NCBI GenBank assembly: GCA_964594465.1
Contig: CAZQMR010000001.1
Span: 1-47,078 of the forward strand
DNA: 47,078 bases
Source: an uncultured Rhodobacterales bacterium
GTDB taxonomy: Bacteria > Pseudomonadota > Alphaproteobacteria > Rhodobacterales > Rhodobacteraceae
Direction: 5' to 3'
The position numbers were made by a program, and so were the translations under genes. Below the pieces are notes generated by a model. It made no database searches and was not told the origin of the DNA. It saw only the letters and a program-made list of their open reading frames with translations. Shown piece by piece: positions 7,108-34,621 of the stretch (the stretch's first letter is position 1; each line of letters opens with the position of its first letter).

Positions 7108-7563
7108 TTAATTGGCGTTGTACTTTTGATCCACGTCGTCGATTGCTTGAACATTTGCGGCAGAGCGCCCCTCTGGATCAAAGGAGCTTTCGAGATATGC
7201 ATCCACGATCGTCTTGGCCAATTCTGCAGCTATCGTGCGCGCGCCGATTGTTATGATCTGAGCATTGTTTGATGTCGCGGCTTTTCCGGCTGAATATGCA
7301 TCGCTTACCAAGGCGGCTCGGATACCCGGCACTTTGTTGGCAGAAATGCAGACGCCGATGCCAGTCCCACACACGAGGATAGCGCGGTCGTAGGTTTTGT
7401 TCAGGACCCCTTGCGAAACGCGATCGGACAGATCGGCATAAAAGGCGTCCGGACCGCTTTGGGTATGCGAGATTTCGGAAACGTCGAACCGCTGGCTCAG
7501 GTAGTCAGCCAATTCGCGCGCTAGGATTTCTCCGGCGCTGTCACCCGCAACTGCAAGTTTCAT
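7108..7563 (-). CDS. rpiB: RpiB/LacA/LacB-family sugar-phosphate isomerase (candidate erythrulose-4-P/erythrose-4-P isomerase)
   Basis: ATG at 7563 preceded by AGGAG. '[14 protein letters not shown]' and '[12 protein letters not shown]'. ATGA overlap (7560-7563) with the upstream TIM-like gene. Confidence 0.85.
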
Positions 7564-8330
7564 TTCTGTCTCCTTAGGGTGTCTGTGCAAAGTCCAAGAA
7601 TTTCTAGATAACCATCAATGTTCCAAGCGGATCGCCCGATGAACAGCCCATCAATGTTTGGGCAGTTTATGAGCTCTTGGCAATTCGTTGGGTTCACCGA
7701 CCCGCCATAGAGGCAGGGGATCCGGTGGCCCAAAAGCTCTTGCGCAACTGCAATAATCTCTTCGTGTTTTTCGTCGGCGTAGTCAGAGGTTGCCGGGATA
7801 CCGCCGTCGCCGATCGCCCAGACGGGTTCGTAGGCCAGCAGCACCTGTGCATTCGGCTTGAGCGTGGAAATGCCAGACAAGGCAGCGCTAACTTGCTTGC
7901 GCAGGACTTTGCTTGCGTCTCCCGCTTCGCGTTCTTCAAGTGTTTCGCCGATGCAAATCAATGGGATCAATCCATTTCGCACGGCGGCGGCGGCCTTTAG
8001 TCCTACGGTCGTATCAGTTTCGCCAAAATGCGCTCTGCGTTCTGAATGACCCAGTTCTACGATTTCAGCGCCGCAATCCGCGACCATCAGGGGCGAAATT
8101 TCGCCGGTCCACGCCCCTTGGTCTTCCCAGTGCATGTTTTGCACCCCGACCTTGATCGACGTGTCCGACAGAATGCTTGCGACCTCGCGCACGGCCGTAA
8201 ATGGCGGTATGACGAAACGCTGAATTTTGGTGTCATCATTGCCACTCAGACGCAATCCTTGGGCAAAGGTTTGCGCCTGTGCCAATGTTTTGTTCATCTT
8301 CCAACTGGTGCCGATCCAGAAGTCTGCCAC
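7560..8330 (-). CDS. tpiA: Triosephosphate isomerase family protein (paralog; candidate tetrulose-phosphate isomerase)
   Basis: 'SWKMNK', 'LGHSERR' and 'AYEPVWAIG' catalytic motifs. The ORF extends to the TTG at 8351. GTG at 8330 (preceded by GGTGGA) gives the usual N-terminal length, so the start is uncertain. Confidence 0.8.
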
Positions 8331-8361
8331 TGAAAATTCCACCCAAGCCAATACCTATTGT

Positions 8362-9405: not shown

Positions 9406-10683
9406 TTAGCCCCATTTATCCAGAGCGGCTTTTAGTTCTGGATGATGGTTCGCGTAGTCGGAAAGCTCGACATCAGCTTCGGCCGCTTCCCAAGCTTGGC
9501 GGATGGCGCGCACGCCAGCTGCGGCGCCCATTGGGTGCCCGTGAACACCACCGCCGCAAAGGTACATAAGATCAAGCGTTCGGCCTGTACGTTGATAGGT
9601 TTCGGGCGCTTGCCCTCCCCATTGTCCTGATCCAACCACTGGCAAAGGTTTGTCATCGTCGGAAAAGATCGGTTCAGACACTGCTTGGAAAGATCGCACG
9701 AAGCTTTCGTCGGGTTCCCAGTATTTCGCCTGAATGCCATTGATCTGGAATTGGTCAACGCCCAGCAGCCGCCAGATTTTTTGGTACGCACGGAATTCCA
9801 TGCCAAGGCCGGGATGCCTTGTGAGAATATCCCACCCGTTGCGATGCGCATGAAGGCAAAGCCCAGATCGCTTGCGCAAAAATGACATTCCACCGTAGCC
9901 GATGGAGTTGATGTTCAAAACTGCGGCGTTGCCGCCCGCTTCGAGCACCACATCATGGTTGCGCATCATGGTGTCGGGGTCGGCGGAGGATATGCCAAAC
10001 GCATACATCACCCGCTTGCCGGTTTTTTGTTCATGTGCGTCCACTACCGGCATGATGGCTTTGACGCGATCTTTGAGCGAGGAATATCCCGGGCTCATCA
10101 ACTTTTCATCATCCTTGATGAAATCGACACCGGCCTCGCATAGCTGTGCGATCACGGTTGCGGTTTCATCGGGCAAAAGACCAAGTGATGGTTTGATGAT
10201 TGAGCCCACCATCGGGCCCTGTGTGACCCCCATCAATTCACGTGACCCGTTGATGCCAAATTGCGGTCCGGGATGGCACGACCATGCCTGAGGCAGGCTG
10301 ATATCCATCACGCGCACGCCGGTCAGCCCCCGCACGGCATAAACACCCCCAATAGCGATGGTGACGAGGGCCGCGATGTCTGTGCCAACTGCCTCCAGCG
10401 GGTAGGTGATAACAACATCTGCCCGATTGTAAGGCCCGTGACCATTTGGATCAGGAAAAGACGGCACGGTTGTTGGTTCCAAGGTTTGGATATCAATCAC
10501 ACGGGCCGCGCAGCGCGCTTGAACCGCAGCGGTTTCGCCCGGCAATTCAGTGAAGGTCCCGGTAGATTGGTCGGACGCGATTTTGGCGGCAAGGGCCGCG
10601 ATGTCGCCCGACGTCTCAAGCCTGTAAGTGACGAGGATTTCGGTGTTGCTCAAGGCTTTCTTCCGCTTTGTTTGGCCCAGCAA
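9406..10683 (-). CDS. RuBisCO-like protein (form IV RLP; RuBisCO large-subunit family, non-carboxylase)
   Basis: 'IIKPSLGL', 'GVDFIKDDEKL', 'LHAHRNGW' and 'CGGGVHGHPMG' align by eye with RuBisCO large-subunit active-site segments. Last gene of the ABC operon. The start is uncertain: TTG 10683, or TTG 10653 preceded by GGAAGA. Confidence 0.85.
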   Translation of the reverse strand: MLGQTKRKKALSNTEILVTYRLETSGDIAALAAKIASDQSTGTFTELPGETAAVQARCAARVIDIQTLEPTTVPSFPDPNGHGPYNRADVVITYPLEAVGTDIAALVTIAIGGVYAVRGLTGVRVMDISLPQAWSCHPGPQFGINGSRELMGVTQGPMVGSIIKPSLGLLPDETATVIAQLCEAGVDFIKDDEKLMSPGYSSLKDRVKAIMPVVDAHEQKTGKRVMYAFGISSADPDTMMRNHDVVLEAGGNAAVLNINSIGYGGMSFLRKRSGLCLHAHRNGWDILTRHPGLGMEFRAYQKIWRLLGVDQFQINGIQAKYWEPDESFVRSFQAVSEPIFSDDDKPLPVVGSGQWGGQAPETYQRTGRTLDLMYLCGGGVHGHPMGAAAGVRAIRQAWEAAEADVELSDYANHHPELKAALDKWG

Positions 10684-15206: not shown

Positions 15207-15336
15207 CTATGTAACATGATGAACCAATTTGCAGGTTATCGAGCTATCCAAGCCTATGGGGTTTGGGTTTCGATTGTGCTGGATGGCAGCCCAAACTAGG
15301 GTTCCTAGGAAACCAGCAAGCCTGTACGAGAGTTTT

Positions 15337-16056
15337 ATGAGAAAACAGCAAGCCAAAGAGCAGATCCACCGGCAAAGGCTTTCAGAGCTCGTATTTGATA
15401 AACTGTGGAACATGATTGTTTCCGGCGAACTCACACCCGGGGATCTCTTGCCATCAGAACGCGCGTTGATGGAACGATTCGGCGTTGGTCGCCCGGCCGC
15501 ACGCGAAGCGCTTCAAATGTTGGCAAACAAGGGTCTTATCACGATCTCCCATGGGGAACGCAGCCGCGTAAACGAATTGAACGCCGGCATGGCCTTTGAT
15601 CAGGTCAACGACATCGCAAAACTCCTTTTGTCGTCGGACCCTTCAAACCTGACGCATCTGATGCAAATCCGGAAAATTCTGGAATTTGGAACAGCGCGTT
15701 TGGCTGCACGAAACTGCACTCGCGCGGATGCAGAGGATCTTCGGCGTATCAATGCTGAACAACGGGAAAACCTGGGGAATATCGAGTTGTTCATTCAGGC
15801 TGACATGGCGTTTCATGTGCGTCTTGCCCAAATTTCCAACAACCCTCTTTTGATCGAAATCACCAAAGCTATGCTATCTTGGTTGTTCGACTACTACCGC
15901 CCGCTGCTGTATTGGTCGGGCCATGAAGACACCACGCTGTTGGAGCATAAAAAGCTGGCTGATGTGCTTGAAACAAACGATGAGGCTGCCGCTTTTGAAG
16001 CGATGCGAGAGCATCTAAACCGGTCCGAGCCATTGTATTCTTTCGAGCCAACATAG
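15337..16056 (+). CDS. GntR-family transcriptional regulator, FadR subfamily (paralog 1)
   Basis: ATG at 15337 gives 239 aa. wHTH 'LPSERALMERFGVGRPAAREALQMLANKGLITISHGERSRV' plus a helical FCD-type C-terminal domain. Confidence 0.85.
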   Translation: MRKQQAKEQIHRQRLSELVFDKLWNMIVSGELTPGDLLPSERALMERFGVGRPAAREALQMLANKGLITISHGERSRVNELNAGMAFDQVNDIAKLLLSSDPSNLTHLMQIRKILEFGTARLAARNCTRADAEDLRRINAEQRENLGNIELFIQADMAFHVRLAQISNNPLLIEITKAMLSWLFDYYRPLLYWSGHEDTTLLEHKKLADVLETNDEAAAFEAMREHLNRSEPLYSFEPT

Positions 16057-16255: not shown

Positions 16256-17083
16256 ATGACAAAGATCGCTCTTTTTGGCGCCGGCGGGAAAATGGGCGTG
16301 CGCAGCGGGAAAAATCTTCTCGAAACGGATTTCGAAGTTGCCCATGTAGAAATTTCCGAGGCGGGGCAGCAACGCGTCAAAGATGAACTTGGGAAGGACT
16401 GTGTGCCGACCGAGGACGCTTTGAAAGGCGCAGATGTCATTGTTTTGGCCGTCCCCGACACCGCAATCAAGGCGGTTTCCCACGCGATCATTGATCAAGT
16501 CGAGCCGGGTGCGATGCTGATTTGTTTGGATGCGGCTGGGCCTTTCGCGGGTCATTTGCCCAAGCGCGATGACGTGACGTATTTCATCTCACATCCTTGC
16601 CATCCTCCCATCTTCAATGACGAGAACACGCCTGAGGGTCGCAACGATCACTTTGGGGGCGTTGCCGCAAAACAAGGTATCGTCAACGCGCTGATGCAGG
16701 GACCAGCTGAGCATTATGAGCTTGGCGAAGCGGTTGGCAAAGCGATTTACGCGCCCGTTGTTCGCTCGCACCGTGTTACTGTGGAACAGATGGCGCTTCT
16801 TGAGCCGGGTCTTTCTGAAACAGTCTGTGCCTCACTGCTTTATGTCATGAAAGAAGCAATAGATGAGGTTGTCGCGCGTGGCGTTCCTGAAGAAGCTGCC
16901 CGCGATTTTCTTCTGGGGCACATGAACATCCTTGCGGCGGTCACCTTTGGCCACATCGACGGTGTCTTTTCCGATGCATGCTACAAGGCCATCGAGAATG
17001 GTCTGCCGATCTTGATGAAAGACGATTGGAAGCGGGTTTTCGAACCTGAAGAGATTGCGGCCAGTATCGAAAGAATTACCTAA
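16256..17083 (+). CDS. NAD(P)-binding Rossmann-fold oxidoreductase of uncertain specificity (prephenate dehydrogenase / 6PGDH-C-like architecture)
   Basis: ATG at 16256 preceded by AAGGAA. 'KIALFGAGGKMG' dinucleotide motif and 'VIVLAVPD'. 275 aa. Monocistronic, between a terminator and a convergent operon. Confidence 0.6.
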   Translation: MTKIALFGAGGKMGVRSGKNLLETDFEVAHVEISEAGQQRVKDELGKDCVPTEDALKGADVIVLAVPDTAIKAVSHAIIDQVEPGAMLICLDAAGPFAGHLPKRDDVTYFISHPCHPPIFNDENTPEGRNDHFGGVAAKQGIVNALMQGPAEHYELGEAVGKAIYAPVVRSHRVTVEQMALLEPGLSETVCASLLYVMKEAIDEVVARGVPEEAARDFLLGHMNILAAVTFGHIDGVFSDACYKAIENGLPILMKDDWKRVFEPEEIAASIERIT

Positions 17084-17168: not shown

Positions 17169-18212
17169 CTAGAGACGGACCGCATCGCCACTGGTTAGAT
17201 CGAAAAATTGCGTCCTCTCCATCGCGACTGACAGCTTGGTGTCGCTCTTATTAGTCGCATGCGCATCCAACTCAGCCATCATATGATTGTTCTCGATGTA
17301 GAAGGTGCCGTAGGATCGCGAACCCGTCGGCTGTATTACGTCGAGTTTGACCGACAATGCGCCTGCTTCGCTTACCGAGAAATGCTCTGGCCGGATGCCC
17401 CAAGTGTACCGTCCGTCTGGAACCCAAGCGCCTTGGATCGTTTGACCGTCCGGCAGTGTCAAAGCACCGCCAGCCACGCTTACATCGATAAAGTTCATTG
17501 AGGGGGATCCAAGGAACGCCGCTACAAACTTGTTCTGCGGACGCTCAAACAGATCAAGGGGCGCACCGGCCTGTTCGATCTGGCCATCCTTTAGAAGGAA
17601 AATCCGTTGAGCCAGTGTCATCGCTTCGATCTGGTCATGTGTGACGTAGATGAATGTTTTACCCAAGCGTTCGTGCAGCTTCTTGATTTCCTCACGCATG
17701 CCATCGCGCAGCTTCGCATCAAGGTTCGAAAGAGGCTCGTCGAACAGATAGAGATCCGCATCCCGAACAATGGCGCGGCCAATGGCAACGCGCTGGCGTT
17801 GACCCCCGGAAAGCTCCCGTGGGAACCGATCAAGATAGTTGGTTATGTCGAGCACATCTGCGGCCCATGCAACTTGGCTGTCGATCTCGGCCTCTGACGC
17901 CTTTCGAGCGCGCAGGCCAAATGCGATGTTTTCGCGAACACTTAGATATGGGTAGAGCGCGTATGACTGGAAAACCATCGCGACGTTTCGATCCCGCGGC
18001 GCAAGATTAGAGATAGACTTGCCATCCAAAATCATATCGCCAGTGGAGATCTCTTCCAATCCGGCAATTGAGCGCAAAAGAGTGGACTTGCCGCAGCCCG
18101 ATGATCCAACCAGAACGACAAATTCGCCTGACGGAATATCTAGGGAAACGTCTCGCACAGCGTGAAAGTCACCGTAGTGTTTATTGATATTTTTGAGACT
18201 GAGATCGGTCAT
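17169..18212 (-). CDS. Carbohydrate ABC transporter ATP-binding protein (MalK/UgpC-like)
   Basis: 'GSSGCGKST', 'LSGGQRQR' and 'YLFDEPLSNLD'. 347 aa. Confidence 0.9.
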   Translation of the reverse strand: MTDLSLKNINKHYGDFHAVRDVSLDIPSGEFVVLVGSSGCGKSTLLRSIAGLEEISTGDMILDGKSISNLAPRDRNVAMVFQSYALYPYLSVRENIAFGLRARKASEAEIDSQVAWAADVLDITNYLDRFPRELSGGQRQRVAIGRAIVRDADLYLFDEPLSNLDAKLRDGMREEIKKLHERLGKTFIYVTHDQIEAMTLAQRIFLLKDGQIEQAGAPLDLFERPQNKFVAAFLGSPSMNFIDVSVAGGALTLPDGQTIQGAWVPDGRYTWGIRPEHFSVSEAGALSVKLDVIQPTGSRSYGTFYIENNHMMAELDAHATNKSDTKLSVAMERTQFFDLTSGDAVRL

Positions 18213-18215
18213 GAT

Positions 18216-19043
18216 CTAACCCTTTACGGCTCCGAGTGACATTCCGCGCACGATGAAGCGCTGCATAGTTCCAACAACCACCATCATGGGCAAAACACCG
18301 AGCATGCTCATGGCTCCGATTTTGGACCAGAAGGTTGATTGAGATCCGAAATATCCAGTGACTTTCACGGTATATGTCACGGCTTCGGACTTGGTGAGGA
18401 TAAGCGCGAACAGGAAGTCGTTCCACGCGAAGATAAATGTGAAGACAGCCGTGGCGAAGAGCCCGGCGCGGGCCATTGGCAGCACGACCTTCCACAAAAC
18501 AGCCCAACGTGTGTGGCCATCCACAAGTGCGGATTGTTCCAGTTCTAGGGGAATGTCTTGGATATACCCACGCATCATCCAGGTGACGTATGGGACGTTA
18601 AAGGCAGTGTATAACAGGATCAGACCCATCCGTGTGTCGACCCATTGCCATGTGACGAACAACAGAAAGATTGGGAAAGCGACGCAGATTGGCGGGATCA
18701 TCCGCTGCGAGATGATCCAGATCGCCAAATGCTCACCTCCCGTTCTGAACCGAACAATCGAGTAAGCCGCCGCTGTTCCGATAATCATGGCTAAAACCGT
18801 GCTGACACTGGCGGTGACCAGTGAATTCCAGACGGCCCAAGCATCACCGTCGCGAAAGAGCGTGAAATATGCGGAAAACTGGAATTCAGACGGGAACCAA
18901 ACCGGTGGATAGGAGTAGATTTCATCTGGTGTCTTCACTGAGATCATCGCCAGCCAGTAGACCGGAAAAACGAAGAGCAAAGTTATTAGGCAGGCAAGTG
19001 CGAGCCGAATGTATAAACGCCAGCCTCGGTCCCAGCGGATCAT
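18216..19043 (-). CDS. Carbohydrate ABC transporter permease (MalG-like)
   Basis: ATG at 19043 forms an ATGA overlap with the upstream stop. EAA loop 'EQSALVDGHTRWAVLWKVVLPMARAG'. Confidence 0.85.
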   Translation of the reverse strand: MIRWDRGWRLYIRLALACLITLLFVFPVYWLAMISVKTPDEIYSYPPVWFPSEFQFSAYFTLFRDGDAWAVWNSLVTASVSTVLAMIIGTAAAYSIVRFRTGGEHLAIWIISQRMIPPICVAFPIFLLFVTWQWVDTRMGLILLYTAFNVPYVTWMMRGYIQDIPLELEQSALVDGHTRWAVLWKVVLPMARAGLFATAVFTFIFAWNDFLFALILTKSEAVTYTVKVTGYFGSQSTFWSKIGAMSMLGVLPMMVVVGTMQRFIVRGMSLGAVKG

Positions 19044-19927
19044 CGTTCGACCTCCACTCTGCGTAATAGCCAAATCACCAGTACGGTCAGAAAGAAGATC
19101 ACCAAGAAGGCGATGGCCGAAGAATAGGACGTTTCAAACTCGCGGAATGCCATATTGTAGGCGTAGATCGAAATAGTCTCAGTCTTCGTTCCGGGTCCGC
19201 CCTGCGTCATCGTCCAGATAATGTCAAAGATACGAAATAGGTCCAGGCCACGGATCAACAATGCGATAATCATGACCGGCAAGATTGCAGGCAATACGAT
19301 CCTTCTAAACGTCATCCACCAAGAGGCGCCATCAATCTGGGCCGCTTCAAGCTGTTCCTTGTCGACATTGGACAAAGCTGCATAAAGCATCAGGAACATA
19401 AAGGGCGTCCACTGCCAAACCTCTGCCAGCATAATGGCAGGCCACACCAGATGGCTTTCGATTGTCCAAAGAATTTCGACATCGCGACCCGCGAACCAGC
19501 CGATAAGTTGGTTCACCGGACCAAAGCGTTGATCTAGCATCAAGCGCCAGGTCGACCCCGCTACAATGGGCGAGATAATAGTGGGCAAAAGGATGATTGC
19601 GACGAAGAATGATTTGAACGGTATTCGTTCCAAGAACAGCAGCGCTAGGAGATATCCAAGCACGAGTTCAATTGGCAAAGCTATCAGCGTGAACACGACC
19701 GTGTGCAGGATTGATTCCCAAAGCCGACTGTCTTCAAACAAGCGGCTGTAATGTTTAAATCCCTGCCAGTTGGTGTCCGCGCCGAACATCGAGATGTCCT
19801 GAAACGAGGTTACAGCAAGCTTAACCAAGGGATACAAACCGATAAGAAGAATAACGAAAACTGCTGGCGCAATGAGCAGGTATTTGAAGACCTTCGGGTT
19901 ATCTAAGGTGCGTGTCAGAGTGCTCAT
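19040..19927 (-). CDS. Carbohydrate ABC transporter permease (MalF-like)
   Basis: 295 aa. EAA loop 'EAAQIDGASWWMTFRRIVLPAILP'. Confidence 0.9.
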   Translation of the reverse strand: MSTLTRTLDNPKVFKYLLIAPAVFVILLIGLYPLVKLAVTSFQDISMFGADTNWQGFKHYSRLFEDSRLWESILHTVVFTLIALPIELVLGYLLALLFLERIPFKSFFVAIILLPTIISPIVAGSTWRLMLDQRFGPVNQLIGWFAGRDVEILWTIESHLVWPAIMLAEVWQWTPFMFLMLYAALSNVDKEQLEAAQIDGASWWMTFRRIVLPAILPVMIIALLIRGLDLFRIFDIIWTMTQGGPGTKTETISIYAYNMAFREFETSYSSAIAFLVIFFLTVLVIWLLRRVEVER

Positions 19928-19993: not shown

Positions 19994-21442
19994 TTACTTA
20001 GGATAGGAGTTGGGTTTGCTCGCCCAATCCAGATAAACACGCTTTTGCTTGTCAGTGCCGATCCGGTCGGTCAATGCATCCCAATCCGCTGCAACCTGAT
20101 CAAGAACCCCTTGAGGATTTTCCCCGGCCCAAAGACGGCTGAAGCCCTGACGCAGTGCTTCGTTGTAACGGTCGATCTGGATTAGAGACAAATCGAGCAT
20201 GCCAGTGTTGGCGCCCTCTTCAAGAATATCTAGATACTCGCCCGCAGACGGCCAACGTGAACGATAGTCTTCGTTTGCGAAGTGGCTGGTCCGGAAGGGG
20301 TCACGAAGCGCATATGGTAACTGCACACGCTGGAGACTTATCTCTTCAGAATTCATCCACATAGCATAGAGGAACGCAGCTTCTTTGTGCTTGGACCCGG
20401 ACGCGACGGATAGCGAGAAACCTGCTGCGAGTGCTGGTTTGCCACCTGGTGGCAGCGCGTACCCGATCGTGTCTGCGACAGTTGTTTCGGGAATCCAGCT
20501 CAAGGCTTCTTCGCCCTTACCGTATCCAGCAGCCCAACGACCAACCGGTGGCCAGCTTACGGCCATTGCGATGTCACCTGCAAGGAATGCTGAGAAGACC
20601 TCTCCAAAGCCCCACTGTTCGACACCAGCGGGCATCCATTCGTTTTCGGCCAGCATACCCTGCATGGTGCGCAGACCTGCTTCGGAATTCACCGTGGCTT
20701 TCATCGTATCAGGGTCAAAGAACCGCCCGCCTTCTACGCGGAAACGCTCTTCGAACAAGAACTTAGCGGTACCCGGCTGACGGAACATTCCGGCGCCGTA
20801 AAGGTCTGGGCCAAATTTGTCGGTGATGAACTGACCAATATCGCTGAACTGATCCCAAGTCTTTGGGGGTGCCAGATCATAGCCATGCTTGGCCTTGAAC
20901 TCTGCCATGTTCTCAGGATTTTCGAAAACATCCTTGCGATAGTACATAACAAACACGTCGCCATCGTCGGGCAGGCCGTAGATTGTACCTTCAACCTTCA
21001 TCTGGTTGTCGCGGTAAACCGGCGCAATCTTGTCCAGTTCCTCAGCGTAATTATACTTTGCGACGAAATCGTCGAGCGGCTCCAGAGCGCCAGCAAGTGC
21101 AAGGTCAGGCATTTGGCTTGGAAGGACGTTCAACACGTCATACCCGCCGCCGCCACCCAAGTGGTCTTGCATCGTCTTGGTGAACATCTCCTCGTTGGGA
21201 GACTCAATGACATTGATCTTGATGCCAGTCAGTTCCTCCCACATTGGGCCCGTAAAGTTCTTGGGATCCAATGGCTGAAGACCGGCTTCGTAGAACACAT
21301 TGAGTGTGATCCCGGAATACGCCTTGGCCGCCTCAACGGCGCGTTCGGCCGCAGATTGGGCAAAAGCGCCGCCAGCGCTTGTGGCCAGAACCGAGGCCGC
21401 GGTGAGTGCCAGAGCTTTGCGCCTGGTCAGGTTGAGCAACAT
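19994..21442 (-). CDS. Carbohydrate ABC transporter substrate-binding protein (family 1, large ~480-aa form)
   Basis: ATG at 21442 preceded by GGAGGA. Tat-like signal 'LTRRKALALTAASVLATSAGGAFAQ'. The longer ORF reaching 21601 would overlap the upstream gene. Confidence 0.85.
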   Translation of the reverse strand: MLLNLTRRKALALTAASVLATSAGGAFAQSAAERAVEAAKAYSGITLNVFYEAGLQPLDPKNFTGPMWEELTGIKINVIESPNEEMFTKTMQDHLGGGGGYDVLNVLPSQMPDLALAGALEPLDDFVAKYNYAEELDKIAPVYRDNQMKVEGTIYGLPDDGDVFVMYYRKDVFENPENMAEFKAKHGYDLAPPKTWDQFSDIGQFITDKFGPDLYGAGMFRQPGTAKFLFEERFRVEGGRFFDPDTMKATVNSEAGLRTMQGMLAENEWMPAGVEQWGFGEVFSAFLAGDIAMAVSWPPVGRWAAGYGKGEEALSWIPETTVADTIGYALPPGGKPALAAGFSLSVASGSKHKEAAFLYAMWMNSEEISLQRVQLPYALRDPFRTSHFANEDYRSRWPSAGEYLDILEEGANTGMLDLSLIQIDRYNEALRQGFSRLWAGENPQGVLDQVAADWDALTDRIGTDKQKRVYLDWASKPNSYPK

Positions 21443-21467: not shown

Positions 21468-23360
21468 TCAATTTGGTGCAGTTTCCATTTCGATGAAGGC
21501 CACTGAGAAGGCCGACAAGCTGAGCTTTTCGGTCTTTGTCTGCGCTGCGTTCGCGAGCCAATCGGGTGACGCCGTTGCGGCATCGAAAGATTGGGCGTCA
21601 AGAATTGTGACGCTAGCCGCTTGCCCCAGCAGAATTTCCTTCGTTGTATCGGTCGTGTTCGCCATCATGATCCGCGCCGCCCCGGCGATCAAAGCACCGT
21701 ATCCCGAAACGCCATCGCCAATTCCCGCAATCGAAAGGCGAGGGTGCCCGGCCATCAGACATGCCTCGCGCACAACGTGGAACAGCGGGTAAACCGCGCG
21801 CCTGGCCCCGTCATACCCAGCTTGCGGATAGTCATTTGGCTCATAACAAAGCCCAAAGGGCCCGACCGGAGCGCCAAGGCAGATCGCTTCAACATTGCTC
21901 TCATAGGTCGCCGCCAGGACCCCCACTGCGAAGGCGGATCCAAACAGACCGCGATGACGTGGTTCGATCTTTGCCATCGTGCGGCGCACCTGCGCGGGGT
22001 TTTGAGCAACTGCCGCCCCGTAAGGGTTGGACCGCATCCCAATGCTGGATAACCCAAGGCGATAGGGGAGACCCTTTGCCATTGCGTCCGTACTGGAAAA
22101 AATCTGTGGCAGAGCCTCAAGCGTTTCCAGAACGGACATGTCATCGCCGGCATGGACAAGCGGCGTCAGGCTGTGCGTAACGTAGTCACATTTGGAGACG
22201 TCTGGCCGATATCGGTTCATCTCGGTAAAATTTGTCAGCATCCCGCCACCGATCATGGACTTGGGAAAGGCTTGTCGAACTGCATCAAGGATGTCGTTTG
22301 GCGCAGCGCCGTCCGGCCATGGCCCGACCGGCTGATGGCTACCAAGATAGGCTTCAGGAAGGGCGATAACCCGCCTTGGCACAATGCCGTGATTTTCAAG
22401 CGCCGTTGCCAGTTCTTGAAGGTCGGATTCTGCACGTGTGGCGGCAGGAAGGACGATTTCTAAATCGATAATTTCCCAACCACGCAGGAAGTCTGCCAGT
22501 TTATCGATCCTATCCAAGTTCGGCGTTGTTCGCAGTAAGACATGCGAAAACCCGCTTAGGGCGATGTCAGTCTTGGGCAACCAATCGGCTTCAAGCGCAA
22601 GTCCGACGTCGATCGCGTTCTCTTTGGTTTGCGCAACGTGCAGAGCGGTTTTTACTGCACCAGCATCTGACGAAACAGCGTCGCCATCACAGGTTATGCG
22701 AACTGATTGTTTCGTGGGCTGTGAAATTTCGTAGGTAAAGGGATAGACCAATGGCACACAGTAAGTTTTGTAAGATGCGTCCGACCAGTTTCTTTGGTCT
22801 TCCATCTCAAAAACTTCGCCGCCAAAGACGATGGCTACACCTTGTCCGCCCAATTCGTACTTCAGTTCTGATATGTCTTTGACAGGCTGGTCGGGCTGAA
22901 TGTGAAGTGGAAAGCGCGTGTTTTCCCTGGTTCCGTTCGAATGCGTTACAGCGAGCGGAGACCCTGCAACGCCTTTGATTGGATGCAAAACGGTAAAGCC
23001 AGCTCGATTGGTTGCAAACGTACCGTTATTGGGCGTCATCGTCAGCTCCGCAACAATAACGCCTTTGGAAGAAGCGTGGATGTGCAGGTCACACGTCAGT
23101 CTGCCGCCGCCAACAGCGAACTTCAGTCCAGCCTCGAAATCATGGGTGGTTTGGGACCATTCATCGACAATCTCCACCGGATAAGTGCCCCAATTTTCAT
23201 CTCGTATTGGCCACGCCAACGCACGCACCAATTCGGTCCCATTCCATGAGATGCGCCGCAAGCCCTCTTGTGAATAAAAAAACGAAAGTGGACCGGTCGT
23301 CACCCTCCGCAGTGCAGGCAGGGACTCGCCAGTTCCATAGAGTTTCTCAAGAGCGTTCAT
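21468..23360 (-). CDS. Conserved-looking protein of unknown function (~630 aa); first gene of the second CUT1 ABC operon
   Basis: Long, uninterrupted ORF with coding-like composition. ATG at 23360 (TTG at 23369 is an alternative). I recognise no catalytic motif. There is no signal peptide and no TM segment. Confidence 0.7.
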   Translation of the reverse strand: MNALEKLYGTGESLPALRRVTTGPLSFFYSQEGLRRISWNGTELVRALAWPIRDENWGTYPVEIVDEWSQTTHDFEAGLKFAVGGGRLTCDLHIHASSKGVIVAELTMTPNNGTFATNRAGFTVLHPIKGVAGSPLAVTHSNGTRENTRFPLHIQPDQPVKDISELKYELGGQGVAIVFGGEVFEMEDQRNWSDASYKTYCVPLVYPFTYEISQPTKQSVRITCDGDAVSSDAGAVKTALHVAQTKENAIDVGLALEADWLPKTDIALSGFSHVLLRTTPNLDRIDKLADFLRGWEIIDLEIVLPAATRAESDLQELATALENHGIVPRRVIALPEAYLGSHQPVGPWPDGAAPNDILDAVRQAFPKSMIGGGMLTNFTEMNRYRPDVSKCDYVTHSLTPLVHAGDDMSVLETLEALPQIFSSTDAMAKGLPYRLGLSSIGMRSNPYGAAVAQNPAQVRRTMAKIEPRHRGLFGSAFAVGVLAATYESNVEAICLGAPVGPFGLCYEPNDYPQAGYDGARRAVYPLFHVVREACLMAGHPRLSIAGIGDGVSGYGALIAGAARIMMANTTDTTKEILLGQAASVTILDAQSFDAATASPDWLANAAQTKTEKLSLSAFSVAFIEMETAPN

Positions 23361-23402
23361 TTTATTCAATCACCGAACCCACGCAACATCGTACGTAACA
23401 TA

Positions 23403-23417
23403 CTCATTATACCAGCT
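23403..23417 (-). promoter_or_regulatory. Shared box copy d: AGCTGGTATAATGAG (oriented toward the 630-aa/ABC operon)
   Basis: The plus strand reads CTCATTATACCAGCT. Lies ~45 nt upstream of the 23360 start. Confidence 0.55.
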
Positions 23418-23471: not shown

Positions 23472-24215
23472 TTAGGTGGCGCGGCGCGGTGCGAACATTT
23501 CCCGGGACCGGTCTAGATGGCTTTGCATTTCAACCACGGCACCTGCGGAATCTTTCTCTGCGATGCAGTCAATAATCCGTGCATGTTCTGCCAAAGTGAT
23601 TTCCTCGTTGCCCGACCAATGCAACAATGCGGTGTGGAACTCCTGCAGCCAGCGCAGCATTGCGCTTGAAGCGGCGGTCACAACAGGGTTGCCGAGAATA
23701 TCTGCAATACCTGTATGAAACGCCATGTCCGCCTCAATGAAGTTTCGAACATCGACATTGTCCGACAAGAATTTTTCTTGTTTCGCATTCAAGCTACGAA
23801 GGGCCTCAATATGCTCTTCTGTCGCCTTCTGAGCTGCGGCATTGACAATTCCAAGCTCGAACATTCGTCGTGCTTCTTTGAGGTGTTCCAGATTGGCCGG
23901 CACTGCGTCCAGCAGAATTTTCGCAACGGTATCGCTTTGATCAAGCACAAGATTGGCCGAAAGTTCATTGACCCGGCTTCGCTCACCATGGCTGATCGTG
24001 ATCAGTCCCTGAGTATGCATGGATTGCAATGCTTCACGAACCGCTGGGCGACCGACGCTAAAGCGTTCCATCAAGGCACGTTCCGACGGTAAATAATCGC
24101 CAGGGCTAAGCTCACCGCTACGGAGCATCTCGCGCAACCGTTCCAACACTTGTTCGGAGAGTTTCAGTCTTACAATCTTTTCCGCACTTTTCTGCGGTAC
24201 ATCAGATGTCATCAT
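23472..24215 (-). CDS. GntR-family transcriptional regulator, FadR subfamily (paralog 2)
   Basis: 247 aa. '[41 protein letters not shown]' is nearly identical to the wHTH of paralog 1. Confidence 0.85.
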   Translation of the reverse strand: [247 protein letters not shown]

Positions 24216-24315: not shown

Positions 24316-24330
24316 TACTGGTATGATGAG
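24316..24330 (+). promoter_or_regulatory. Shared box copy e: TACTGGTATGATGAG (13 nt upstream of the kinase ATG)
   Basis: One mismatch in the TATAAT core relative to copies a and d. Confidence 0.5.
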
Positions 24331-24342: not shown

Positions 24343-25710
24343 ATGAATTCCCCTGCTGCCAACAAATTCCGTCGACCTTTGGTCGCTTGGCTAGGAGATG
24401 ATTTCACTGGAGCCGCCGCCGTTATGGAGGTTTTGAGCTTCGCCGGACTGCCGTCAATCTTGTACTTATCCACACCTGACGCAAAGGCTCTAGAAGAAAA
24501 CAAGGACTGCGTGGGGATTGGTATCGCTACTCTCGCGCGGTCAAAATCACCGGATTGGATGGAAGACAACCTTCCAGCGGTTTTTGAGTTTCTTGATCAG
24601 ACGGGAGCCGAACTGGTGCACTATAAAATCTGCACCACGCTCGACTCTTCACCATTGGTTGGATCGATCGGCAAAGCCATTGATCTGGGCCTAAAACATT
24701 TTGGAGAAGCCGCAGTTCCGGTGGTGACAGCAGCCCCGCAAATGAGACGGTATCAAGCCTTTGGGTCTTTGTTTTGCTCAGCTGCCAACGGAGTATACCG
24801 GCTCGATCGCCACCCGGTCATGGCCCATCATCCAGTGACACCGATGGATGAAGCGGATGTCGCCCGCCACTTAGCAAAGCAAACGCAAAGGCCGACGGGC
24901 TGCATAGATCTGGAGGATCTTTCAGAGCAGCGCGCGGCTCAGAAGCTGGAAAGTGCCGCGCAAGTCTGGACCCTTGATCTGACAGCCGCCGAGCAACAAG
25001 CAGAAGTGGGTCGCCTGCTTTGGGAGCGGCGTAAAGACAGCCGCTTTGTTGTGGGGTCTCAGGGTATTGAATACACGTTGGTCTCTTATCTGCGCGAGCA
25101 GGGCATAATCGAGTCAATCGCCCCTCCACCTGGTCTTGGGCGAGACAACAATTTTGCAGTCGTATCCGGCTCGGTATCTCCAACCAGCGCTGCGCAAATT
25201 GCTTGGGCACGCGAAAACGGTTTTGCCGCAATCCGGCTTAACGCGGCGCAGCTTTTATCTGGCGATGCCGCAATGGTGGAGGATCAGGCGTTGTCCGAAG
25301 CAAAGGCTGCTCTTGCAATAGGCAAGCCGCCCATCATCTTTACTGCGGAGGGCCCCGACGACCCAACCCTGGACGAAGTCAATAAAGCCGCGTCAGGCGA
25401 CATGGATCATGCAAATGACCTGATCGGCCAAGCGCTTGGTAGGATCATGCGGGCTTTGGTTATTGATCTTGATCTGCGACGCATCGCCGTATCGGGCGGT
25501 GATACATCTGGCCGGGTCTGCAAGGAATTGGGCATCTATGCATTGGTCGCGGTTTCTCCGACCATCCCTGGGGCTGCAATATGCCGAGCACGTGCGAACG
25601 GCAAATTAGACGGTCTCGAAATTGCACTGAAAGGCGGCCAGATGGGTTCGCCCGATTATTTTGGCTGGGTGCGCGATGGAGGCGGGGTTTCGTCGCAGCG
25701 ATCAGCTTAG
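24343..25710 (+). CDS. DUF1537 'four-carbon acid sugar kinase' family protein
   Basis: ATG at 24343 in ORF 24286-25710. N-terminal 'VAWLGDDFTGAAAV' and C-terminal nucleotide-binding 'IAVSGGDTSGRV' are motifs characteristic of the OtnK/DtnK/OiaK family. Confidence 0.8.
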   Translation: MNSPAANKFRRPLVAWLGDDFTGAAAVMEVLSFAGLPSILYLSTPDAKALEENKDCVGIGIATLARSKSPDWMEDNLPAVFEFLDQTGAELVHYKICTTLDSSPLVGSIGKAIDLGLKHFGEAAVPVVTAAPQMRRYQAFGSLFCSAANGVYRLDRHPVMAHHPVTPMDEADVARHLAKQTQRPTGCIDLEDLSEQRAAQKLESAAQVWTLDLTAAEQQAEVGRLLWERRKDSRFVVGSQGIEYTLVSYLREQGIIESIAPPPGLGRDNNFAVVSGSVSPTSAAQIAWARENGFAAIRLNAAQLLSGDAAMVEDQALSEAKAALAIGKPPIIFTAEGPDDPTLDEVNKAASGDMDHANDLIGQALGRIMRALVIDLDLRRIAVSGGDTSGRVCKELGIYALVAVSPTIPGAAICRARANGKLDGLEIALKGGQMGSPDYFGWVRDGGGVSSQRSA

Positions 25711-25812: not shown

Positions 25813-26604
25813 TCACCAGCAGCAGAAGCCGCCATCTACCAACAGATCCACGCCTGTGCAATAGGACGCAGCATCTGACAGCAAAAACACCGCAGGCCCG
25901 ACCATCTCGTTGACATCCGCCATACGCTGCATTGGGGTCTGGCTTTCAAATTCCTTGGTCTGGTGGATCATTTCGGGCCGCGTGTTCATCGGCGTCGCGG
26001 TATATCCCGGCGATATAGAATTGACCCGGATGCCGCGATCCACCCACTCCATCGCGATGGATTTGGACATATGGATCACGCCAGCCTTGGACGCATTATA
26101 ATGCACTTGATTGAGGCCACGATTGACAATCACACCCGACATCGAGGCGATATTGACGATGGACCCGCCCAGCCCATGAGCGAGCATAGCGCGCCCCTCT
26201 GCCTGACAGGACAGCCAGATGCCCTTCATATTGATGTCCATAAGGGTCTGGTACTGATCTTCGGGCATATCCTCGATGCCCTCTGCATTGGCGATACCTG
26301 CTGCATTGAGCGCCAGCCGCAAAGGGCCAAGCTCCGCCTCGGTTTGCGCGACCGCCGCCGCCATAGCCTCGCCAGAGGTCACATCGGCTGCAATCTGAAG
26401 CGACTTGCACCCGCTTGATGCAATCGCCGCAGCGGTATCCGCCAGCCCATTATCCGTGCGACGGTCCAGCAGGGCCACATCCGCCCCGCATTGCGCAAGA
26501 CCCATCGCAATCCGCTGTCCGATCCCGCTGCCTGCACCCGTTACAAGCGCCACGCGCCCTGAGAGATCAAAGAGGGCAGGCGCGTTAAGGGATATGTCCG
26601 ACAT
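25813..26604 (-). CDS. Short-chain dehydrogenase/reductase (polyol/sugar dehydrogenase-like)
   Basis: 'VTGAGSGIGQRIA', catalytic 'YNASKAG', and 'SPGYTATPM'. Sits 23 nt downstream of the ABC ATPase gene, so probably in the same operon. Confidence 0.85.
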   Translation of the reverse strand: MSDISLNAPALFDLSGRVALVTGAGSGIGQRIAMGLAQCGADVALLDRRTDNGLADTAAAIASSGCKSLQIAADVTSGEAMAAAVAQTEAELGPLRLALNAAGIANAEGIEDMPEDQYQTLMDINMKGIWLSCQAEGRAMLAHGLGGSIVNIASMSGVIVNRGLNQVHYNASKAGVIHMSKSIAMEWVDRGIRVNSISPGYTATPMNTRPEMIHQTKEFESQTPMQRMADVNEMVGPAVFLLSDAASYCTGVDLLVDGGFCCW

Positions 26605-26627: not shown

Positions 26628-28121
26628 CTATAGTGTGGCCAATTCCATGATTGAGACGTCATTTGCGTTCTCGCGAGACAAGATGCCTGACTGCTTGCCT
26701 TGCGCCATCACCATGATGCGGTTGGACACACCCAGCACTTCCTCTAGGTCCGAACTGACCACAATGACCGAAACGCCTTCATTGGCTAGGCCTACGATGA
26801 TGTCATAGATGGAGGAGCGTGCGCCAACATCAATGCCGCGCGTCGGCTCATCAAGTACCACCACGCGAGGATTGCGGGCTAGCCATTTGGCGATCACAAC
26901 CTTCTGTTGATTGCCGCCCGACATCTCATTGGCGTTCTGATGGCCTTGCCCCTTCACTCCGAATTTTGCGATATTCTCGCTGGCAAATCCGTTGACGCGC
27001 CGCGCGGAAACAAAGCCCGAGGGCGCGACTTCTTTCATATTGGCATAAGCGATGTTCTCCGCAATCCTGTGTTGCAGTACCAAACCCTGCTGTTTGCGGT
27101 CCTCTGGAACCATCACGATGCCCTTCTTGATCGCATCTTTGGGGCTGCGCGGGGTGATCTCTTGCCCATCCAGCAGAACCTGCCCACTCGCAATCGGGTC
27201 AATTCCGGTGATAGCGCGCACCAGTTCTGTGCGCCCGGCACCAATCAGACCCGCAATCCCGAAAATCTCGCCCTTTTGAACTTCAAAATTGACGTCCGAG
27301 AAATGACCAAGCCCCGAGCTTAGATCCCGCACATCCAGCACGGTTTCAGTCTTGGGCGTCGGAATCGCCGGGAACATCCGGTCAAGGCTGCGCCCAACCA
27401 TGGCCTCCACAATGCTGCGTACAGGCACATCCGCGCTGTCAAACTCCTGAACTTTCGCCCCATCACGCATCACCACAACACGATCCGCGATGCGTTTGAT
27501 CTCTTCGAGACGGTGGGAAATATAGATGATCCCCACGCCATCGGTTTTGAGCCGCTCGATCTGCTCGAAAAGCTTTGTGGTCTCGTCACCGCCCAAGGCT
27601 GCAGTTGGCTCATCCAGGATCAAAAGCCGCGCATTCAGCGTCAGCGCTTTTGCGATCTCAATAAGCTGCTGATTGGCCGTCGAAAGCCCCGCCACAAGAC
27701 GACGCGGCGAGACATCAAGCCCCAAGCGCTGAAGCCCTGCATGGGCGCGCTCTTCCATTGCGCGGCGATCCACAAAGCCAACGCGGGTCGGGTTGCGCCC
27801 GACAAAGATATTTTCAGCTATCGAAAGATGCGGCAGCAGCAGCAATTCCTGATGGATCATGCCCACGCCGCTGTTCAAAGCCTCCCGAGGGTTGGCGGGC
27901 GCATAAGGTGCGCCCTGCCAAGTCATTGTTCCAGACGAAGGGAGAACCGTGCCGGAAATGACATTTGAAACCGTAGATTTGCCAGCACCATTCTCGCCAA
28001 GCAATGCAACGACCTCGCCAGCGCAAACATCCAGATCAATTCCATGCAGCACTTCAATCAGCCCATAAGACTTCTTGATATTGCGCAAGGACAGGATCGG
28101 CGTCCTACTGTCAGGGGTCAT
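26628..28121 (-). CDS. Sugar ABC transporter ATP-binding protein with tandem NBDs (RbsA/MglA-like, CUT2)
   Basis: 497 aa. 'GENGAGKST' and 'LILDEPTAAL' in NBD1; 'MSGGNQQKV' and 'VVLDEPTRGID' in NBD2. Confidence 0.9.
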   Translation of the reverse strand: MTPDSRTPILSLRNIKKSYGLIEVLHGIDLDVCAGEVVALLGENGAGKSTVSNVISGTVLPSSGTMTWQGAPYAPANPREALNSGVGMIHQELLLLPHLSIAENIFVGRNPTRVGFVDRRAMEERAHAGLQRLGLDVSPRRLVAGLSTANQQLIEIAKALTLNARLLILDEPTAALGGDETTKLFEQIERLKTDGVGIIYISHRLEEIKRIADRVVVMRDGAKVQEFDSADVPVRSIVEAMVGRSLDRMFPAIPTPKTETVLDVRDLSSGLGHFSDVNFEVQKGEIFGIAGLIGAGRTELVRAITGIDPIASGQVLLDGQEITPRSPKDAIKKGIVMVPEDRKQQGLVLQHRIAENIAYANMKEVAPSGFVSARRVNGFASENIAKFGVKGQGHQNANEMSGGNQQKVVIAKWLARNPRVVVLDEPTRGIDVGARSSIYDIIVGLANEGVSVIVVSSDLEEVLGVSNRIMVMAQGKQSGILSRENANDVSIMELATL

Positions 28122-28160
28122 TGCAAGGCCTTTTGTTCTCTGGTGCTAGCAGGACTTGGT

Positions 28161-29105
28161 TTATGGGTGCTTCTCAACGAACTTTGCCGCATCGTTGCAT
28201 GTTGTCAGTACAGCGTTCGGGATCTGGCGCGCAGGCACAGAGGCACCATTTGCAACCGCAATCGCTGAGTTTACCGCTAGAACACCCATGGCTTGCGTGC
28301 TTTGTGTCGCGGTCACGATAAAGGGCGTGTCACAAGCCACCAGCGATTCCAGCGCGGCACCATCACCATCATAACCACCAACGATGACCTGATCTGAGAG
28401 ACCTGCAACCTCAACCGCTTTGGCAGCACCCATGGCAAGACCGTCCGCCTGACCAAAGATGATCTTGATGTCGGAATTTGCCTGCAACATGTTTTGAGCA
28501 ATGTTGAAGCCTTCATCCGGGGACCACTGCTGGCTCCACTGCTGGGCGACCAGCTCTACACCGGGGTTCTCGTCGATGGCCATTTTGCAGCCTTCAAAGC
28601 GCTGAACTTCTGGCGTTGTGCCTTTCTGGCCGTGGATCACCACCATTTTGCCACTGCCACCGGCAAGACCAATGATGTGGTCGCAAACCTGATAAGCCGA
28701 CAGGACGTTTTCGCCGTAAATCACCGTGTCACCCGGCGCGCCATCAGGCTCGCGGTCAACATTGATCACTGGGATGCCTTCTGCACGGGCCAGACGTGTT
28801 GGCACGGCCGCCGCAGCAGCACCCGCTGGGATATAGATAAACGCATCAATGCCTTGTGTGATCAAATCCTGAACCTGGCTCACCTGTGTCGCTGTGTCGT
28901 TCTTGGCATCCACTACGATGACATCAATCCCGAGCTTGCCCGCATAGCCTTCAACACCCAGTTTGATCTGGTTGAAGAAGTCAGCTTGTAGGTTTGGCAC
29001 AGCTAGACCAATCTTTTTCACACCACCCACACCATCAGCCGTAGCGGATGTTGCAAGGGCCGCAAACGCTGTTGCTGCCAATAGGCTTTTCACAATGTTC
29101 TTCAT
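28161..29105 (-). CDS. Sugar ABC transporter periplasmic binding protein (RbsB-like, type I PBP)
   Basis: ATG at 29105 preceded by AAGGAGGAG. Signal peptide 'MKNIVKSLLAATAFAALATSATA'. Confidence 0.85.
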   Translation of the reverse strand: MKNIVKSLLAATAFAALATSATADGVGGVKKIGLAVPNLQADFFNQIKLGVEGYAGKLGIDVIVVDAKNDTATQVSQVQDLITQGIDAFIYIPAGAAAAAVPTRLARAEGIPVINVDREPDGAPGDTVIYGENVLSAYQVCDHIIGLAGGSGKMVVIHGQKGTTPEVQRFEGCKMAIDENPGVELVAQQWSQQWSPDEGFNIAQNMLQANSDIKIIFGQADGLAMGAAKAVEVAGLSDQVIVGGYDGDGAALESLVACDTPFIVTATQSTQAMGVLAVNSAIAVANGASVPARQIPNAVLTTCNDAAKFVEKHP

Positions 29106-29188
29106 GGTTTTCTCCTCCTTGATGTTCGGCCCACCTGATCCGGTCAGGCCATCTTGTTGAAGGCGCTCGCAATCAGCGCCCGTCTCGT

Positions 29189-30172
29189 TCACACTCTCCG
29201 GTGTTTGAAAGTTTCCGCAGCCACAGCCAAAACAATGACCAGTCCAATGACGACTGCTTGCAAAAATGGTGAAACGCTGAGCAAATTCAGCCCATTGCGC
29301 AAAACGCCAATGATCAGCACCCCAATCAGCGTGCCCACGACACCCCCGGTGCCGCCCGAAAGACTTGTGCCGCCGATGACGACAGCGGCGATTGCATCCA
29401 GTTCATAGGCAACGCCAGAGCTCGGCTGTACCGAGTCCAGACGCGCGGCTAAAAGCACGCCCGCAAGGCCCGACAAAAGGGCGCAAACTGTATAAACCAT
29501 CACCGTTGTCAGCTTCACATTGACCCCGGCCAGCCGCGCCACTTCAGGGTTGCCGCCAATCGCGTAAAGCGCGCGCCCTTCTTTGCGAAAGCGCAAGAAC
29601 AGGATGGCGAGCACAAAAACCACCAGCATGACTGAGACTGTCATCGTCAAAAAACCCCATTGCCGGATGATCGCGCCCATATTGAACCAGGCCGGAAAGC
29701 CGATGATCTGCGAGCCATTGGTGATCATATTTGCAAGGCCCCGCGCGATGGACATCATCGCAAGCGTGGCAATAAAGGCAGGCACCGCGAATTCCGTGAT
29801 CAAAAGACCCGAAATCACGCCACAAAGCGCCGCCGCGATCAGCGCACCGCCGATGGCAACTGTCATGGACATGCCCGCCTCGACATTGAGATAGCCCAGC
29901 ACCATCATCGCAAGGGCCATCACCGAGCCAACCGACAAGTCAATTCCGCCAATCAGAATCACAAATGTCATGCCCACAGCCATAATCCCAAGCACGGTGA
30001 TCTGGTCTGCAATGTTCAGAAAATTGCGAAAAGACAGAAAAGCGTCCGTGGCAAAGGACAAGAAAACGCAAAGCAGGATAAGCCCGATGAGCGGGCCGGT
30101 TGCACCGCTGAGCGAAAAGAACTGGGACAGCCTTGCCCTCCCGCTTGGGCCGGGAATTTCCGTGGTGCTCAT
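29189..30172 (-). CDS. Sugar ABC transporter permease (RbsC-like)
   Basis: ATG at 30172 preceded by GGGAGGA. About 10 hydrophobic segments, with glycine-rich 'GGTSLSGGTGGVVGT'. Confidence 0.85.
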   Translation of the reverse strand: MSTTEIPGPSGRARLSQFFSLSGATGPLIGLILLCVFLSFATDAFLSFRNFLNIADQITVLGIMAVGMTFVILIGGIDLSVGSVMALAMMVLGYLNVEAGMSMTVAIGGALIAAALCGVISGLLITEFAVPAFIATLAMMSIARGLANMITNGSQIIGFPAWFNMGAIIRQWGFLTMTVSVMLVVFVLAILFLRFRKEGRALYAIGGNPEVARLAGVNVKLTTVMVYTVCALLSGLAGVLLAARLDSVQPSSGVAYELDAIAAVVIGGTSLSGGTGGVVGTLIGVLIIGVLRNGLNLLSVSPFLQAVVIGLVIVLAVAAETFKHRRV

Positions 30173-30358
30173 CAATCCTCCCACTGCGAATAATTATGCA
30201 TTGTCGAGATTAAATGCTAGGCGAAGGATATGAGCCTGTCAACGTCCCAAAACATTTCAGCGACCTAAGACTGATGTAAGCTGCTAACCTCTCAGAACGG
30301 CTTGACAGATTCGGTATTGCATGTTTTCTTATATGTGAATTTTTATACAGGGACGCGT

Positions 30359-32136: not shown

Positions 32137-32138
32137 GC

Positions 32139-33617: not shown

Positions 33618-33638
33618 ATAAATTCGAAAGCACGCCAC

Positions 33639-34616: not shown

Positions 34617-34621
34617 ATATC

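Follow-up and report, generated by a model that had tools for sequence, protein, structure and literature searches.

A divergent ApnL-family gene, putatively encoding a D-apionolactonase, heads a CUT1 importer operon on a Rhodobacterales plasmid

We analysed a DNA stretch of 47,078 nucleotides from an uncultured Rhodobacterales bacterium (contig CAZQMR010000001.1 of assembly GCA_964594465.1), which we call the window. The replicon is a repABC plasmid, given the presence of RepA at 11-1186. On the reverse strand of the window lies a five-gene operon, whose first gene encodes a protein of 630 amino acids and whose other four genes encode a CUT1-type ATP-binding cassette (ABC) importer. The protein is almost certainly a divergent, intact member of the D-apionate lactonase (ApnL) family. 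With a probability of roughly 0.7, it is a D-apiono-1,4-lactone hydrolase, i.e., it catalyses the ApnL reaction with D-apionolactone as its physiological substrate. This reading draws on a full-length match to the family profile NF049900, three Apionate_lact domains, the retention of invariant residues, the linkage of related genes to other apionate genes, and the presence of such pathway genes in the window.

The frame at 21468-23369 is uninterrupted on the reverse strand. It encodes 633 amino acids if read from a TTG at 23369, or 630 from an ATG at 23360; the protein-database form (P0002) is the 630-residue version, and the stop codon (TGA) occupies 21468-21470. The predicted protein has a mass of 68 kDa and an isoelectric point of 5.3. 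Its highest 19-residue Kyte-Doolittle mean is 1.24 and its N-terminus is non-hydrophobic, so it appears to have neither a signal peptide nor a membrane segment and is most likely cytoplasmic.

A gap of 25 nt separates the stop codon from the start (ATG at 21442) of the gene for the solute-binding protein (SBP), which is preceded by a GGGAGG ribosome-binding site. The N-terminus of the SBP, MLLNLTRRKALALTAAS, reads as similar to a twin-arginine translocation (Tat) signal, and the closest solved structure is that of a distant sorbitol SBP (4rya, E 2e-14). Next come the genes for two permeases and a MalK-like ATPase (Table 1). A preliminary description of this DNA had recorded a long, clean open reading frame (ORF) without signal peptide or transmembrane segment, 25 nt from the gene of a large Tat-signal SBP of about 480 residues, with genes for two permeases and a MalK-like ATPase after it and a copy of a shared box in front. 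All of these statements are borne out by our analysis.

ApnL was reportedly assayed in 2018 as the D-apionolactonase of the oxidative D-apiose pathway. This pathway, including D-apionolactonase, is ascribed to Carter et al. 2018 in a recent paper (PMC13753588). The NCBIfam profile for this enzyme (NF049900, D-apionate lactonase ApnL) is the sole NCBIfam match of the window protein. It aligns residues 9-580 with profile positions 4-592 of 595 (E 6.2e-121, 404.8 bits), and a profile search of the whole assembly, which is 83% complete, found a single copy (403 bits). The Pfam families PF25837, PF25838 and PF25839 (Apionate_lact_N, Apionate_lact_M and Apionate_lact_C; Pfam 38.1) are annotated on P0002 and on nearly all of its relatives in precomputed annotation. 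Our own Pfam-A scan, with a library that lacks these three models, gave no match, and neither did a sequence search of the PDB at E<=1.

An exhaustive phmmer search identified 3,968 representative clusters (50% identity) at E<=1e-3, of which 1,371 reach E<=1e-30, with the closest relatives only 54-63% identical to the window protein. Among the close relatives listed, those with an NCBI name are called "hypothetical protein", and a few bear the JGI name "D-apionolactonase". Even the canonical Rhizobium copies of ApnL are "hypothetical protein" in plasmid records of 2024. The preliminary description had likewise regarded the protein as an orphan with no motif assignable to a known family. This view is refuted by the profile and the Pfam families, which span the protein, and by the number of clusters. 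The family in question belongs to a carbohydrate pathway.

We built a maximum-likelihood tree with 81 members of the family taken from genome loci, and it splits into two groups, each with an SH-aLRT support of 100. The window protein falls into the smaller group (20 rows), which we call clade A, and the Rhizobium-type ApnL lies outside it. Scores with NF049900 range from 1043-1049 bits in Rhizobium leguminosarum and R. anhuiense, through 631-687 bits for the CUT1-joined members of Dongia and Rhizobium sp. Q54 and 557-564 bits for members in Yersinia and Azospirillum, to 434-477 bits for the relatives in clade A. The scan left out the sequence of locus L087, which contains a stop codon.

Despite this divergence in score, many residues are shared throughout the family. 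Invariant in all 81 rows, and kept in the window protein, are E43, R46, R53, W57 and R119, a block in the N-terminal domain (E185, E187, D188, R190, W192, D194, S196, K198 and Y200), and a group in barrel loops after strands beta4, beta5 and beta6 (E380, N382, R383, H403, D406, D407, R443, N445 and R468). In addition, E301 on beta2 is 99% conserved, and about 60 positions are conserved to at least 95% over both clades, including the canonical Rhizobium rows. A single alignment position (437) separates the two clades, with L versus P. This near-identity at conserved sites speaks for one chemistry throughout the family. We consider E301, E380, N382, R383, H403, D406, D407, R443, N445 and R468 in the barrel, as well as E185, E187, D188, R190, N191, W192 and K198 in the N-terminal domain, to be candidate catalytic residues.

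An AlphaFold2 model based on an alignment of 77 sequences (pLDDT 94.4, pTM 0.94) has three domains. Residues 1-235 are all-beta in the model, and reach a pLDDT of 90.6 when folded alone. Their best structural match is the galactose mutarotase 3imh (Z 15.0, root-mean-square deviation 4.0 A, 217 residues aligned), followed by 3nre (Z 14.8), and then by N-terminal domains of GH97 enzymes (Z 14.6) and domain 5 of beta-galactosidase (Z 14-14.6). Sequence identity to the mutarotases is 5-10%. Residues 235-630 are modelled as a (beta/alpha)8 barrel and a C-terminal beta-sandwich. This part resembles the GH79 entry 7pr9 (Z 25.1, root-mean-square deviation 3.7 A, 353 residues aligned), and GH79, GH30 and GH51 enzymes generally (Z 22-25, 3.4-4.0 A, 310-360 residues). 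The best whole-chain matches in Foldseek are three-domain GH97 and GH36 enzymes with an E-value of 1e-15, at TM-scores of just 0.2-0.3. The preliminary description had guessed that the N-terminal third might be a mutarotase-like sandwich and the rest a barrel. The model agrees on both counts, with a sandwich of about 235 residues and with a C-terminal beta-sandwich in addition to the barrel. We found no published description of a glycosidase-like three-domain fold in the ApnL family.

The genomic context of clade A points to apionate. We matched the window's proteins against 84 loci with tblastn. The clade-A gene adjoins a gene for a RuBisCO-like protein (RLP) in 15 of 20 loci, mostly together with genes for the DUF1537 kinase OiaK and for ApnO, and the typical order is GntR-ApnL-RLP-OiaK-ApnO. 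Two loci with long flanks, from metagenome-assembled genomes of Hyphomicrobiaceae (L015) and Rhodobiaceae (L023), have ApnL homologues that are 51% and 46% identical to the window protein, respectively. In both, an ApnL-RLP-OiaK-ApnO operon is followed by SBP, permease, permease and MalK genes whose products are 69-83% identical to those of the window (SBP 71-75%, permease 1 76-79%, permease 2 78-83%). The ApnL-family gene is therefore present in syntenic loci, and what the window carries is a rearranged form of a conserved operon. More generally, D-apionolactonase genes cluster with apionate genes of routes 2 and 3 on many genomes (PMC13753588, section 21).

The window itself carries the other genes of the pathway (Table 1). 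Its ApnO is 66-75% identical to the ApnO proteins of canonical clusters. The structure that it matches, 5t57, is presumably that of the Cupriavidus protein assayed as ApnO. The kinase scores 447 bits with the OiaK model versus 160 bits with the 3-oxo-tetronate kinase model, and the RLP exceeds the cut-off of the OiaX model. The pair of TIM-like and RpiB-like isomerase genes also occurs within the apiose cluster of Rhizobium anhuiense (L086).

Table 1. Features of the ApnL-CUT1 operon and of the associated apionate genes in the window
Feature	Position	Strand	Evidence or remarks
ApnL-family gene, putative D-apionolactonase, first gene of the operon	21468..23360	-	NF049900; PF25837, PF25838, PF25839; AlphaFold2 model
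CUT1 solute-binding protein, 482 aa, Tat-like signal	19994..21442	-	SBP_bac_1, E 7e-36
ABC permease 1	19040..19927	-	BPD_transp_1
ABC permease 2	18216..19073	-	BPD_transp_1
MalK-like ABC ATPase, at the end of the operon	17169..18212	-	ABC_tran and OB_MalK
Shared box GCTGGTATAATGAG	23403..23416	-	43 nt before the ATG, within the 111-nt upstream gap
GntR/FCD regulator, NanR-like subfamily, directly upstream	23472..24215	-	GntR and FCD; PRK03837, 276 bits, above the cut-off of 260
DUF1537 kinase, OiaK-like (3-oxo-isoapionate kinase)	24343..25710	+	NF042436, 447 bits, below the cut-off of 700; divergent from the regulator
SDR oxidoreductase, at the end of the adjacent CUT2 importer operon	25813..26604	-	adh_short_C2; PRK06114, 466 bits
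D-apionate oxidoisomerase ApnO	16256..17083	+	PDB 5t57, E 4e-123 over residues 18-291; PGDH_C domain; convergent with the operon end
OiaX, RuBisCO-like 3-oxo-isoapionate-4-phosphate decarboxylase	9406..10683	-	NF042437, 779 bits, above the cut-off of 700
TIM-like isomerase	7560..8351	-	NF000722, 412 bits
RpiB-like D-erythrulose-4-phosphate isomerase	7108..7590	-	NF051858, 226 bits, below the cut-off of 240

The box in front of the ApnL-family gene reads as a near-consensus extended -10 element (TGGTATAAT) and contains GGTATA, the repeat unit of NanR in E. coli. A 16-nt form of the box has four copies in the window, versus 0.05 expected. A 14-nt form, with up to three mismatches allowed, has six copies versus 1.7 expected, all of them intergenic and at promoters of the apionate genes. 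These sites are located between the genes for the TIM-like isomerase and a transaldolase, and before the second GntR gene (two copies), the ApnO gene, the ApnL-family gene and the DUF1537 kinase gene (24317-24330). The genes for ApnO, the OiaK-like kinase, OiaX and the two isomerases all follow copies of this one box. The copy before the ApnL-family gene is probably both promoter and operator of the ApnL-CUT1 operon, and the box may be the operator of the NanR-like GntR regulators. Many clade-A loci have a GntR gene in front of the ApnL homologue. The window has a paralogous pair of GntR/FCD genes (15229-16056 and 23472-24215), whose DNA is 71-75% identical over 67-94 nt, and both products score above the cut-off of the NanR model.

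Taken together, these elements suggest the following scheme, whose outline from D-apionate to erythrose-4-phosphate follows published work (PMC13753588). The operon would be transcribed from the boxed extended -10 promoter, such that the ApnL-family enzyme and the CUT1 importer are made together. The lactone would arise from imported apiose through a dehydrogenase, such as the nearby short-chain dehydrogenase/reductase (SDR), or would be imported as such. The ApnL-family enzyme would then convert D-apionolactone to D-apionate, ApnO would convert D-apionate to 3-oxo-isoapionate, and the OiaK-like kinase would phosphorylate the latter to its 4-phosphate. OiaX would form L-erythrulose-1-phosphate from this compound, and the TIM-like and RpiB-like isomerases would lead on to erythrose-4-phosphate. 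If this is correct, a name is now available for the lactonase step, which was the sole unnamed step of a complete plasmid-borne pathway for D-apiose and D-apionate in an apparently marine alphaproteobacterium. The strict NCBI model for ApnL leaves a whole clade named "hypothetical protein" in the NCBI records listed. What the CUT1 importer carries is relevant to how bacteria obtain carbon from apiose.

Several observations weigh against D-apionolactone as the substrate. The score of the window protein, about 405 bits, is below the equivalog cut-off of NF049900 (750 bits), which is the level at which NCBI transfers the name automatically. Equivalog-level identity is thus not established, and the protein belongs to the wider ApnL family. 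The score is also lower than that of every clade-B member tested (557-1049 bits), and identity to canonical ApnL is 33-36%. However, the OiaK inside the canonical Rhizobium cluster scores 469 bits against a cut-off of 700 for NF042436, so a sub-threshold score is normal in the D-apiose pathway and is no warning in itself. A full-text literature search for apionolactonase or ApnL returned only PMC13753588, and we found no assayed clade-A enzyme. As to context, Dongia deserti (L060) has the CUT1 importer and an ApnL-family gene in a non-apionate setting, followed by OtnK and OtnC. The former, a 3-oxo-tetronate kinase, scores 616 bits and the latter, a 3-oxo-tetronate-4-phosphate decarboxylase, 321 bits, each above its cut-off. 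In another genome with the CUT1-ApnL module (G038), we found no OiaX-like RLP or ApnO. In addition, ApnO accepts other aldonates, and shows good kinetics in the oxidation of D-erythronate, D-ribonate and L-lyxonate (PMC13753588, Table 1). Finally, no gene for a D-apiose 1-dehydrogenase of the ApsD type is present in the window. The best match in the genome, a Gfo/Idh/MocA protein on contig C108, has an identity of 42%. Its gene has a GcvT-like gene on either side, and we rejected it as an ApsD.

The low score, the settings in L060 and G038, and the breadth of ApnO are also what one would expect of an aldono-1,4-lactonase of the ApnL family with another or a broader substrate, such as D-erythrono-, D-ribono- or L-threono-1,4-lactone, whose acid would still enter via ApnO and the DUF1537 kinase. 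Indeed, the two settings indicate that the substrate range varies within the family, which probably includes lactonases for other small aldonolactones. For the window protein itself, we consider this explanation unlikely. The clade to which it belongs is linked to RLP, OiaK and ApnO genes, the kinase in the window fits the OiaK model far better than the tetronate model, OiaX is above its cut-off, and only one alignment position distinguishes the clades.

It is very unlikely that the protein is a glycoside hydrolase or esterase acting on an imported disaccharide or conjugate that contains apiose, so as to free apiose or apionate. CUT1 importers often carry oligosaccharides, and the CUT1 operon headed by this gene encodes a large SBP. 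The three-domain architecture with its GH97 and GH36 matches, the resemblance of the barrel and beta-sandwich to GH79, GH30 and GH51, and the lack of ApsD-type dehydrogenase genes at CUT1-linked loci would fit such an enzyme. However, a shared fold does not prove a shared function, identity to any glycosidase is 8-14%, and the protein shares its conserved residues with the clade named lactonase in NCBIfam. Moreover, the nucleophile position on beta7 (E491 in the window protein) is not conserved, with E in 28 of the 81 rows, D in 24, A in 13, S in 7 and Q in 3, and we rejected a glycosidase as the main explanation on this ground. The preliminary description had proposed that the protein is the first enzyme to act on the imported substrate, and had named a glycoside hydrolase, a lyase, an epimerase and a lactonase as options. 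The lactonase option is favored by NF049900 and by the linkage, while the other three find no support.

It is hardly credible that the gene is a decayed paralogue, or one without function, that survives only through its place in the operon: the adjoining apiose dehydrogenase gene is missing and a neighbouring importer operon looks partly broken, with two short permease ORFs, but the frame is full-length without stops, all family-invariant residues are kept, the model is confident and a near-consensus extended -10 element precedes the gene.

We next consider the source of the lactone. Canonical clusters (L086 and L077) have a 370-residue Gfo/Idh/MocA gene of the ApsD type directly upstream of ApnL, and homologues of this gene flank the ApnL-family gene in 24 loci from both clades. 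In nine clade-A loci (L016, L017, L029, L030, L032, L053, L066, L067 and L071) the two genes directly adjoin. Such a pairing is expected of a dehydrogenase and a lactonase, and speaks for clade A having lactonase activity. The lack of an adjacent ApsD in the window weakens the lactonase case without excluding it, given that the assembly is 83% complete and that an SDR could substitute. The SDR at 25813-26604, which also scores with models for glucose and rhamnose 1-dehydrogenases, is a candidate non-orthologous apiose 1-dehydrogenase. Elsewhere, apionolactonase genes have also been noted to cluster with genes for putative dehydrogenases or reductases, and the authors are studying the latter as a new type of apiose dehydrogenase (PMC13753588, section 21). 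We rejected SDRs as regular partners of CUT1-linked ApnL genes, since just 3 of 19 such loci have an SDR gene at a distance of up to 5 kb.

The type of importer might be relevant to this question. An ApsD-type gene is found within 10 kb in none of 19 CUT1-linked loci, versus 18 of 34 CUT2-linked loci. In tests on phylogenetically independent pairs the association has the expected direction but is not significant (median p 0.5 for CUT1 versus ApsD, and 0.125 for CUT2 versus ApsD), with too few informative pairs. ApnL-family genes from two different clades are linked to this same CUT1 system (SBPs 57-75% identical), and in L060 the module feeds OtnK and OtnC. These facts raise the possibility, which we regard as doubtful, that the CUT1 importer works with the ApnL-family enzyme as a self-sufficient module that imports and opens an aldono-1,4-lactone, here D-apionolactone or another apionate precursor cleavable by ApnL. 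In that event, the oxidative pathway would start outside the cell, and no cytoplasmic apiose dehydrogenase would be needed.

In two distant genomes, this CUT1 importer is accompanied by genes for an HpaI-like aldolase and a D-2-hydroxyacid dehydrogenase, which lie after MalK in L023 (19792-21634) and before the SBP in L060 (3611-5452). Neither gene is found beside the importer in the window. The RLPs encoded next to the clade-A genes of L015 (4771-6000), L023 (11935-13167) and L053 (12932-14170) score 419-458 bits with the OiaX model, whose cut-off is 700, and are 40-43% identical to the OiaX of the window. They may be of the transcarboxylase/hydrolase type (OiaT), in which case the window pairs a clade-A lactonase with a Rhizobium-type OiaX.

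We now note further properties of the window. A second CUT1 operon, in the region of 13288-14702, ends in OiaX; one of its permeases is a 174-residue ORF (14178-14702) that overlaps the next ORF. The region at 26628-35404 contains a CUT2 importer (similar to RbsA, RbsB and RbsC) and an SDR gene. Divergent from these are genes for a split transketolase (30302-32136), for an FGGY kinase (32139-33602), for a SorC regulator and for another SDR. In Solirhodobacter olei (L021), the ApnL-RLP-OiaK-ApnO cluster has a similar split transketolase next to it, with 54-59% identity. The set at 26628-35404 could be a transketolase route for D-apiose, and the plasmid would then have two apiose routes. Another split transketolase and an SDR gene, at 1222-7053, adjoin an NMT1/SsuA-like SBP with an ABC ATPase and a permease, and are unrelated to the apionate genes. 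An ORF of 2,482 amino acids (38223-45671, forward strand) lies in a region of higher G+C content and strong positive GC skew.

With respect to known systems, the modelled barrel with its appended beta-sandwich is like that of clan GH-A, e.g., the GH79 heparanases and beta-glucuronidases, the GH30 xylanase XynC and the GH51 arabinofuranosidases. By contrast, identity to these enzymes is only 9-14%, and the window protein has an extra mutarotase-like N-terminal domain. The defining catalytic feature of the clan is lacking, because the acidic residue on beta7 is variable, and the invariant E380 sits seven residues past beta4 (strands taken from the secondary structure of the model), in the sequence FTExNR and not in an N-E-P motif. 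The resemblance to clan GH-A is one of fold only, and not of family membership. GH97 and GH36 enzymes share the modelled order of domains, which is an N-terminal beta-supersandwich, a barrel and a C-terminal beta-sandwich. However, the low whole-chain TM-scores to GH97 and GH36, and identities of 7-11% to these enzymes and to galactose mutarotase, set the window protein apart.

The closest comparison is with canonical ApnL. The window protein belongs to a separate, well-supported clade and is distant from the canonical enzyme in score and in identity. Its gene heads a CUT1 importer operon, whereas the canonical gene comes after a CUT2 importer and an ApsD gene. Nonetheless, the two proteins are homologous from end to end, have the same three domains and family-invariant residues, and are encoded in the neighbourhood of ApnO, OiaK, RLP and GntR genes.

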